This document shows positions 11,800 to 12,128 of a stretch of DNA of 14,062 bases, in pieces. The notes beneath the pieces are model-generated. The model was not told the DNA's origin, ran no database searches, and saw nothing but the letters and a program-made list of their open reading frames with translations. Each line of letters opens with the position of its first letter. Position 1 is the stretch's first letter. The position numbers were made by a program, and so were the translations under genes. Source of the DNA: Escherichia coli (GTDB lineage Bacteria; Pseudomonadota; Gammaproteobacteria; Enterobacterales; Enterobacteriaceae); the NCBI RefSeq assembly GCF_003334385.1, contig NZ_QOWN01000066.1; one strand, written 5' to 3'.

Positions 11800-12128
11800 C
11801 CCGGAGGGGCGAAAGCCCCTTCTGCCGTCCACTTCTTCGGGGTTTCTCCCCGCAGTGGACCTTTCCGATGGGGCAGCGACTGCCACGGCACGGGGCAGTT
11901 GTCCGGGGGCAGACGCAAAAGTTTTTGACGCCTGCGGCAAAAAGTTTTGTGGCTGGTACATCTCTCCCCTGGACGGCTGAAACGTGTTGTGGCCGCTTCA
12001 GCCCCCGGAAAGTCCACAGCGGGGAAACAGGCCGCAGGGGGGGCGGCGGAAGGGCAGACAACTGCGCCATCAGGCGCAGTTGCCTTACACACCGTCAGGT
12101 GTGCAGGGAGCGCCGTTTCCGGCGCGAC
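11800..12128 (-). promoter_or_regulatory. GC-rich ~329-bp element, copy 2 of the direct repeat; candidate Frpo/ssi-like single-strand promoter
   Basis: Near-identical to 8933-9261 (83-bp identical core at 11891-11973). The 5' arm (about 11815-11870) is imperfectly complementary to the 3' arm (about 12005-12060), for example CAGTGGACCTTTCCG against CGGAAAGTCCACAG. Confidence 0.5.

Follow-up and report, generated by a model that had tools for sequence, protein, structure and literature searches.

What is the repeated, hairpin-forming DNA that stands in front of two different gene blocks in the leading region of an Escherichia coli plasmid, and what does it do for the genes behind it? We analysed a window of 14,062 nucleotides (the whole stretch taken from contig NZ_QOWN01000066.1), in which the second copy of this element, 11800-12130, precedes a block of three genes. 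In brief, sequence comparison and predicted folds make it very probable that copy 2 is a class-1 single-stranded DNA (ssDNA) promoter of the Frpo/ssi (ssp1) family, the second dispersed leading-region repeat of an IncI-complex plasmid and the 'R2' of Venturini 2013. The + strand would form the fold, and RNA would run leftwards in the - sense. The literature already describes this family, where it is located in IncI-complex plasmids, what it does, and the deletions that occur at its copies.

Copy 1 of the element (8933-9263, + strand) belongs to the same class and heads a DUF4942 gene (8037-8888, - strand). Pairwise alignment of the two copies gave 87% identity over 331 nt with five small indels. 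With BLAST, 11780-12128 aligned to 8912-9261 with approximately 85-87% identity over approximately 350 nt (E approximately 1e-105), and a repeat finder returned four collinear repeat families with a start-to-start distance of approximately 2870 nt. An earlier note on this DNA had described a second copy of a hairpin repeat, approximately 2.9 kb from the first, and all three methods confirm it. The limits given there, 11800-12128, agree almost exactly with those published for plasmid ColIb-P9, where the repeat unit CGGAGG...GCGCGACAG (326-331 nt as published) corresponds to 11803-12130 of the window.

The ssi repeats of ColIb-P9 (IncI1; AJ238399, positions 1459-1787, 4353-4678 and 11381-11711) are credited to Bates et al. 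1999 and Nasim et al. 2004, and are named 'Frpo1-3' in Suppl. Table 2 of Samuel et al. 2024. They have the same unit length, limits and orientation as copy 2. Copy 1 is 98% identical to the first of them (1459-1787); copy 2 is 89% identical to the second (4353-4678) and equally so to the first (324 aligned nt). The second ColIb-P9 repeat resembles copy 2 in its outer arms, mini-hairpins and fold, and lies 2894 nt from the first repeat, as compared with the 2870 nt that separate copy 2 from copy 1. It differs from copy 2 in the core, which in copy 2 is of the first-repeat type.

Outside the IncI complex the similarity is confined to the core. IncF and F-type plasmids match 11868-12008 only, with 75-79% identity, and the core of copy 2 aligns with ssiD (Frpo) of the F plasmid (sequence NC_002483), the identity to F-plasmid Frpo being 76-79%. 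The F elements Frpo1 (ssiD) and Frpo2, for which Masai and Arai 1997 and Couturier et al. 2023 (PMC9849209) are the sources named, share with copy 2 the GTCCGGGGG/CCCCTGGAC clamp, an A/T-rich tip stem with TTG(C/T)GG and a GT.CAT.T segment that is unpaired and asymmetric. Like copy 2, they form a long hairpin overall and show strand asymmetry. Their outer arms are unrelated to those of copy 2 in sequence, with 57% identity overall in the alignment. They lack the GCGAAAGC mini-hairpin and the three 3' mini-hairpins of the IncI repeat, and they are found in a MOBF backbone with other downstream genes.

The element is present in more than 5000 plasmid records. Among the matches listed it occurs in 1-4 places per record, the hosts are mostly Escherichia, Klebsiella, Salmonella and Shigella, and the plasmids are mostly conjugative. 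The form found in the window, at 95% identity or above, is present in approximately 530 records. Homologues of Frpo have been reported from 6,006 conjugative elements (PMC11541004). A loose pattern, TGTCCGGGGGN{50,80}CCCTGGA, searched over 298 Gb of genome contigs, returned at least 120 loci, mostly unrelated (Streptomyces and assorted MAGs); many of the loci with this pattern carry an identical 94-nt span.

Overall the window matches conjugative plasmids of the IncI complex (IncK / I-gamma), and the best match is pB2C_83 (IncI-gamma/K1, MOBP, MPF_I), with 98.5% identity over window positions 77-12300. The gene order is trbC, a TolA-like gene, nikB (4328-7039, - strand), nikA (- strand), an intergenic region and then the leading genes, almost all on the - strand: DUF4942, rpn, an 88-aa gene, a 144-aa gene and others beyond. 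An oriT nic motif, CATCCTG|T, is found at 7468-7475 on the + strand, upstream of nikA and just 3' of the inverted repeat GGGAATGTC...GACATTCCC. This assignment is based on the MOBP/IncI1/IncP consensus (Furuya and Komano 1991, as cited in PMC3817090). Since the motif lies on the + strand, that consensus would make + the transferred strand and everything to the right of nic the leading region. A + strand that enters from approximately 7475 rightwards would then be the template of the - strand genes.

The copy 2 hairpin lies on this template strand, 4.3-4.7 kb rightwards from the nic motif and directly upstream of the 144-aa gene (11316-11750, - strand; 'PndC' or hypothetical depending on the record; phrog_1987). 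The ATG of this gene, at 11750, is 50 nt from copy 2 and has a Shine-Dalgarno sequence, GGAGA, 5-9 nt before it. The 88-aa hypothetical gene (10958-11224, - strand) is the second of the block, and rpn (9979-10950, - strand), which encodes an Rpn-family recombination-promoting nuclease (TIGR01784, 180.7 bits against a cutoff of 52.1), is the third. Copy 2 thus heads the 144-aa / 88-aa / rpn block, as first proposed, with the genes directly downstream on the - strand. Further to the right, a hairpin resembling class-2 elements (13622-13859) is located upstream of a klcA/ardB-like gene. A match of 12433-13989 to the IS1 region of pB2C_83 was rejected as an artefact; the true match of this segment is the klcA-DUF1380 region of the F plasmid.

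Folded as ssDNA, the + strand of 11780-12135 had a dG of -119.4 kcal/mol, as compared with -76.2 +/- 4.0 kcal/mol for 100 dinucleotide shuffles (z -10.8), none of which folded as well as the native strand. The minimum free energy (MFE) fold is dominated by an imperfect hairpin (11821-12058, + strand), for which the DNA MFE pair list gives an outer stem of 11821-11874 with 12001-12058. The imperfect arms proposed earlier, at approximately 11815-11870 and 12005-12060 around a conserved core, pair as this outer stem. The core common to the IncF Frpo elements (11868-12008, + strand) consists of the clamp, the tip stem and the loop. At its tip, 11910-11930 pairs with 11935-11955 in an A/T-rich stem closed by a CCTG loop (11931-11934), and directly below this stem the 3' arm carries a 10-nt bulge, GTACATCTCT (11956-11965).

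The main hairpin is flanked by smaller ones, all on the + strand. The 5' mini-hairpin AGGGGC-GAAA-GCCCCT (11805-11820) holds the GCGAAAGC motif (11809-11816), which belongs to a motif class described in PMC13037366. Its counterpart in copy 1, GGAGC-GAA-GCTCC (with GCGAAGC at 8942-8948), shows a stem altered in a compensatory way, from A-T to G-C. On the 3' side, three small hairpins (12059-12082, 12083-12107 and 12110-12125) lie within the published IncI repeat unit. The region that they occupy (12059-12125) is 95% identical between copies 1 and 2, and across the ColIb-P9 repeats the stems are conserved and the loops variable. We considered these three hairpins as terminators and rejected this, as no T/U run follows them in either sense.

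The structure bears the marks of selection. We aligned twelve diverse copies, namely the IncI types, Frpo1 and Frpo2 of F, those of F-like plasmids, one from Serratia and two distant ones from Salmonella. The consensus core hairpin has 35 pairs, 12 of which show compensatory changes. In all, 90.7% of the alignment cells are paired, a value somewhat favoured by predicting the structure on the same alignment. None of 500 column shuffles reached the observed value on any measure, and registers slid by 1-3 columns paired in 49-64% only. Each folded alone, ssiD of F and the Serratia copy adopt the same architecture despite a different outer-arm sequence.

The structure is also strand specific. The complement of copy 2 folds with a dG of -103.4 kcal/mol versus -119.4 for the + strand, and in all eight class-1 elements tested the transferred strand was more stable than its complement, by 8-17 kcal/mol. 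The fold of copy 2 (11780-12135) contains six G·T wobbles, and no A·C is present among its five 1x1 mismatches. Several of the wobble pairs are kept across the family, and the conserved ones are all on the + strand. Folded as RNA, the mRNA-sense strand falls short of the + sense by 20-28 kcal/mol, since conserved G·T pairs turn into A·C mismatches there. Taken together, the strand asymmetry, the conserved wobbles and the weak mRNA-sense fold point to a selected structure that belongs to the transferred DNA strand, and neither to a transcript nor to the duplex.

Within the hairpin, two conserved segments are candidates for promoter boxes. The largely unpaired segment GGTACATCTCT of the 3' arm (11955-11965, + strand) may serve as a pre-melted -10-like region. 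Its G, T, A, T and T are invariant in the two copies of the window, the three ColIb-P9 repeats and ssiD of F, the pattern GT..AT.T is kept in all E. coli (IncI, F) and Salmonella-type copies aligned, and an asymmetric loop equivalent to the bulge is also found in the fold of ssiD. The second segment, TTGTGG (11947-11952, + strand), is a putative -35-like hexamer in the tip stem and is preceded by an A/T tract, GCAAAAAGTT, that resembles an UP element. TTG(T/C)G(G/A) is conserved in the IncI, IncF and Serratia copies, with TGGAC(G/T/A) 15-17 nt downstream, and this spacing is retained even in the Serratia copy.

These segments allow two candidate readings. In the one, the -10-like element would lie within unpaired GGTACATCTCT, as (C)ATCT(C), without a good -35 at 17 bp. 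In the other, TTGTGG would be followed after 17 nt by TGGACG (11970-11975), a poor sequence for a -10. No pair of hexamers with both a good sequence and a 17-bp spacing could be assigned in the copy 2 hairpin. With either -10 assignment, the geometry would place the transcription start at 11892-11906 on the - strand, and we infer a leader of approximately 140-155 nt from there. TTGACG (11925-11930) was ruled out as a -35, as it lies on the 5' arm, is directed at the loop and lacks conservation both in F and in repeats 2 and 3 of ColIb-P9. We detected no duplex sigma-70 promoter on either strand of 11300-12700.

To the homology, position, orientation and strand-specific conserved hairpin of copy 2, and to its lack of a conventional duplex promoter, all observed here, the literature on homologues adds the promoter activity, transience and priming that may be expected of it. 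Promoters of the Frpo/ssi type give transient 'zygotic' expression of leading-region operons (PMC9849209, PMC11541004, PMC12672017), and the idea of modular early-expression cassettes, raised earlier for the two copies, agrees with this role. According to the account of Masai and Arai 1997 in PMC7690428, the stem-loop of single-stranded Frpo offers E. coli RNA polymerase its -35 and -10 boxes, and the transcript made also primes complementary-strand synthesis in vitro. In F plasmids without Frpo1 or Frpo2, early production of downstream proteins in transconjugants is abolished in vivo (PMC9849209). For pESBL, an IncI1 plasmid, induction at 15 min reaches approximately 500-fold in six operons of the leading region, three of which are driven by ssi1-3, there called 'class 1' (PMC12672017). 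The start sites of ssi1-3 were mapped by 5'-RACE (Suppl. Fig. S3 of the same paper), and in uvrD mutants, whose DNA remains single-stranded for a longer time, the induction is prolonged (PMC12672017).

As the Frpo/ssi family is well characterised, copy 2 most likely provides the 144-aa / 88-aa / rpn operon with its ssDNA promoter, and may secondarily be a priming site. By analogy, we suggest the following. During conjugation the + strand would be nicked at oriT (approximately 7475) and led into the recipient by its 5' end. After entry of approximately 4.6 kb, 11821-12058 would fold on itself into the long imperfect hairpin, whose double-stranded tip and partly unpaired segment would mimic a pre-opened sigma-70 promoter. 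Host RNA polymerase would bind the hairpin and transcribe leftwards with the incoming strand as template, so that mRNA for the 144-aa protein, the 88-aa protein and Rpn could be made ahead of any complementary strand; the same transcript may prime the synthesis of that strand. Formation of the duplex would iron out the hairpin and switch the promoter off, and expression would therefore be transient. It should be noted that the strength of copy 2 may differ from that of the orthologue studied, since copy 2 carries a core of the copy-1 type and not of the type found in the second ColIb-P9 repeat.

The order of these two roles could be reversed: the element might chiefly be an ssi signal that provides RNA primers with which the complementary strand is made in the recipient, with expression of the downstream genes incidental. 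Members of the family were originally obtained as ssi sequences (Nomura 1991, as cited), the in vitro priming by Frpo transcripts summarised in PMC7690428 fits this, and in a 2026 preprint early conversion events sensitive to rifampicin are reported in vivo close to ssp1/Frpo sites. We nevertheless regard it as unlikely, as each copy immediately precedes an operon that has the same orientation and a Shine-Dalgarno sequence, the Frpo deletions abolish early protein production (PMC9849209) and operon induction from ssi1-3 is strong by RNA-seq (PMC12672017). Priming and promoter functions are mutually compatible, and priming is better seen as a second role than as a true rival.

An action of the hairpin at the level of RNA is very improbable, be it as structured 5' leader, as attenuator or as processing site in an mRNA that starts upstream of 12130. 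The sequence would fold as RNA too, and a terminator-like site at 12336-12316 indicates that the upstream operon ends nearby. Against this, the upstream operon ends at that terminator of its own, the mRNA-sense fold is the poorer one by approximately 20-28 kcal/mol, with its G·T pairs lost to A·C, the conserved wobbles are all on the + strand, and there is no matching Rfam family: Rfam 15 gave no match at the gathering threshold in the whole window, and below this threshold 8800-14062 gave chance-level matches only (E>0.2). More improbable still is a mobile or selfish element (MITE, IS remnant or REP-like) or a fragment of a coding gene, without a promoter role. Several dispersed copies on thousands of plasmids might suggest a mobile element, and some RefSeq records annotate 'hypothetical protein' ORFs inside the repeat, which is spanned by an open frame of 341 codons (11316-12341, - strand). 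These ORFs are probably spurious: seven ORFs taken from both copies matched no NCBIfam family at E<=1, and the indels between the copies measure 1, 1, 1, 2 and 2 nt, none a multiple of 3, so that no reading frame is common to both. The 'PndC' label, considered as a sign of a coding repeat and rejected, belongs to the adjacent 144-aa gene, which overlaps the query by 1 nt. No IS features were found in the repeat, and at all the loci examined the copies belong to the leading region and are co-oriented with the leading genes. The structure is strand specific and backed by covariation. The earlier note had named a coding-gene or IS fragment as the finding that would speak against its reading; NCBIfam, frame and IS features all argue against such an origin, and the fold, the covariation and the lack of a conserved frame support a structured non-coding element ahead of two gene blocks.

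The ssDNA promoter reading places copy 2 beside other systems in which hairpins act in single strands. In pESBL and F, the ssDNA promoters of classes 2 and 3 (NAR 2025, PMC12672017; ssp2/ssp3 in a 2026 bioRxiv preprint) share its principle and location. The class-2-like hairpin of the window (13622-13859) has no sequence similarity to copy 2, is shorter and simpler, and carries TACGAT with two mismatches. The single-strand origins (sso) of rolling-circle plasmids and the hairpin promoters of phage N4 are likewise single-strand DNA hairpins read by an RNA polymerase. Being unrelated to copy 2 in sequence and different in polymerase or in purpose, they are an analogy only.

Hairpin promoters allow anti-restriction, anti-SOS and other establishment genes to be expressed minutes after entry, before the DNA is duplex. 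Such early expression from ssDNA bears on the spread of resistance plasmids and on ways of blocking it. Copy 2 brings no new principle, and its worth is in annotation: in IncK / I-gamma plasmids it shows where the early operon with the 144-aa, 88-aa and rpn genes begins. In addition, recombination in and beside the repeats yields leading regions with differing gene loads.

Copy 2 itself is a mosaic, with arms of the second-repeat type and a core of the first-repeat type, because its outer arms match the second ColIb-P9 repeat (60/62 and 24/25 positions, versus 54/64 and 20/26 for copy 1) and its core matches the first. Over 11892-11977 the core agrees with copy 1 at 83 of 86 positions, with the first ColIb-P9 repeat at 85 of 86 and with the second at 70 of 88. 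ColIb-P9 has similar cores in its repeats 2 and 3, the window has similar cores in R1 and R2, and R3 of pB2C_83 retains the core of the third ColIb-P9 repeat. These pairings are lineage specific and therefore require at least one exchange of cores between copies.

The hint that the core of copy 2 was exchanged by gene conversion also leads to a broader and rather doubtful proposal, in which the unit is a composite of separable modules shuffled between copies, some of them with functions still to be described. As modules one would count the promoter core, the outer arms, which are specific to the lineage, the mini-hairpin with GCGAAAGC, the three mini-hairpins on the 3' side and a 165-nt extension (12131-12295, + strand) that related plasmids have at both R2 and R3 and that copy 1 lacks. 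The mini-hairpins could act in SSB exclusion or in nucleation of the fold, and the extension could be a recombination module for swapping early-gene cassettes.

The two direct repeats had also been proposed as a substrate for deletion or inversion of the genes between them. Deletion is borne out by plasmids with hybrid repeats; inversion is not, because direct repeats promote deletion or duplication. A survey of related plasmids for rearrangements with endpoints in the repeats, as the earlier note had advised, was run with a chimeric query made of copy 1's left flank and left half followed by copy 2's right half and right flank. This query recovered a single-repeat junction in six plasmid records, where one repeat links DUF4942 directly to the 63-aa, DUF1380 and klcA genes. 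Among them is pO111-CRL115, described as carrying a hybrid R1/R3 repeat and lacking the intervening 9.7-kb ardA-psiAB-ssb module (Venturini et al. 2013, PMC3817090). Frpo1 and Frpo2 of F have been noted as recombination substrates by Couturier et al. (PMC9849209).

The R1, R2 and R3 repeats of pO26-CRL125 and pO111-CRL115 (PMC3817090) are the same repeats in the same plasmid group, the IncK/Z/B/O complex. Whereas pO111-CRL115 has the hybrid R1/R3, the window keeps R1 and R2 and lacks the ardA-psiAB-parB-ssb segment, and, unlike in pO111-CRL115, its R2 is joined to an R3-type flank inside the common 165-nt extension, where R2 and R3 are 90-100% identical. Sliding identity and BLAST show that the window follows pB2C_83 through R2 and the 165 nt, to 12295, with approximately 99-100% identity. 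Beyond 12295 it carries the R3 flank of pB2C_83, with the 63-aa gene, DUF1380 and the klcA/ardB-like gene. Due to this switch of flanks in the extension, the window is without the approximately 6.4-kb ardA-to-ssb segment, a difference from pB2C_83 that can be read as a loss or a gain, in either direction. The same arrangement as in the window is found in 40 records, for example pCFSAN001588_002.

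The copy-2 repeat, a class-1 ssDNA promoter repeat (Frpo/ssi) at 11800-12130, is a mosaic when it is compared with the repeats of plasmid ColIb-P9. Its outer arms are of the type of the second ColIb-P9 repeat, whereas its core, 11892-11977, is nearly identical to the core of the first-repeat type found in copy 1 (9022-9107). In ColIb-P9 the core is instead common to repeats 2 and 3, unlike in the window, where copies 1 and 2 share it. The combination of arms of one repeat type with the core of another implies, by sequence comparison, that the promoter core has moved between repeat copies by gene conversion.

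The gene-proximal mini-hairpin of copy 2 carries the extraordinarily stable DNA mini-hairpin motif GCGAAAGC at 11809-11816, and that of copy 1 carries such a motif, GCGAAGC, at 8942-8948. The stem in copy 2 differs from that in copy 1 by a compensatory A-T to G-C change. A review of stable mini-hairpin motifs connects them with structures at single-strand origins that resist SSB, and makes no mention of Frpo (PMC13037366). Three small hairpins at 12059-12125 make up the end of the IncI-type repeat that is distal to the promoter. Their stems are conserved, their 4-nt loops (ATCA, GTCA and TTTC) vary, and ssiD (Frpo1) of F lacks them. As none of them is followed by a T run, they are not terminators.

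On the negative strand, an open frame spanning 341 codons (11316-12341) extends from the gene encoding a 144-aa protein back across the entire copy-2 repeat, within which hypothetical proteins are annotated in some RefSeq records (e.g. WP_023893444.1; locus L006, 9695-10039). The long frame and these annotated ORFs are likely to be artefactual, a product of the G+C-rich hairpin.

The best-matching plasmid, pB2C_83, possesses an approximately 6.4 kb ardA-psiA-psiB-parB-ssb segment that is absent from the window. Here, the second repeat and a 165-nt extension (12131-12295), common to the second and third repeats (R2 and R3), are directly followed by an R3-type flank; the stretch concerned reaches to 13600. 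In brief, the flank encodes a 63-aa protein (12504-12695), a DUF1380 protein (12692-13114) and a klcA/ardB-like anti-restriction protein (within 13161-13697), all on the negative strand. The same arrangement of R2, extension and R3 flank was found in 40 plasmid records. Just ahead of the extension is a terminator-like stem-loop at 12316-12336 on the negative strand, followed by CTTTTATT; it probably marks the end of the upstream klcA, DUF1380 and 63-aa gene operon.

A second hairpin, unrelated to copy 2, is located at 13622-13859 and has 32-nt arms that are 91% complementary. Its positive strand folds with a dG of -79.5 and a z of -4.4, and the 3' arm bears TACGAT with two mismatches, ahead of the klcA-like gene. 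This hairpin is similar to 'Frpo' 4' of Samuel et al. and is consistent with the 'class 2' ssDNA promoters (PMC12672017); with the hairpin that precedes ardA in pB2C_83 it shares 98.9% identity.

The palindrome AAAGTGAA-N-TTTCTTCACTTT occurs in each of two direct repeats of 42 nt (9356-9397 and 9423-9464) that share 83% identity. They are operator-like, and an HTH regulator gene (9465-9716, positive strand) lies immediately downstream. This gene and a 113-aa ORF adjoining oriT (7610-7951) are among the few leading-region genes that the incoming strand could not template.

Directly downstream of rpn, a small ORF (9747-9956, negative strand) encodes a product that matches the C-terminal 59 residues of Rpn with 54% identity (E 4e-16), the homology starting at the internal Met263 of Rpn. 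Judged from this similarity, the ORF appears to be a stand-alone copy of the RpnS C-terminal antitoxin domain, which has been described for Rpn toxin-antitoxin systems (PMC10327210).
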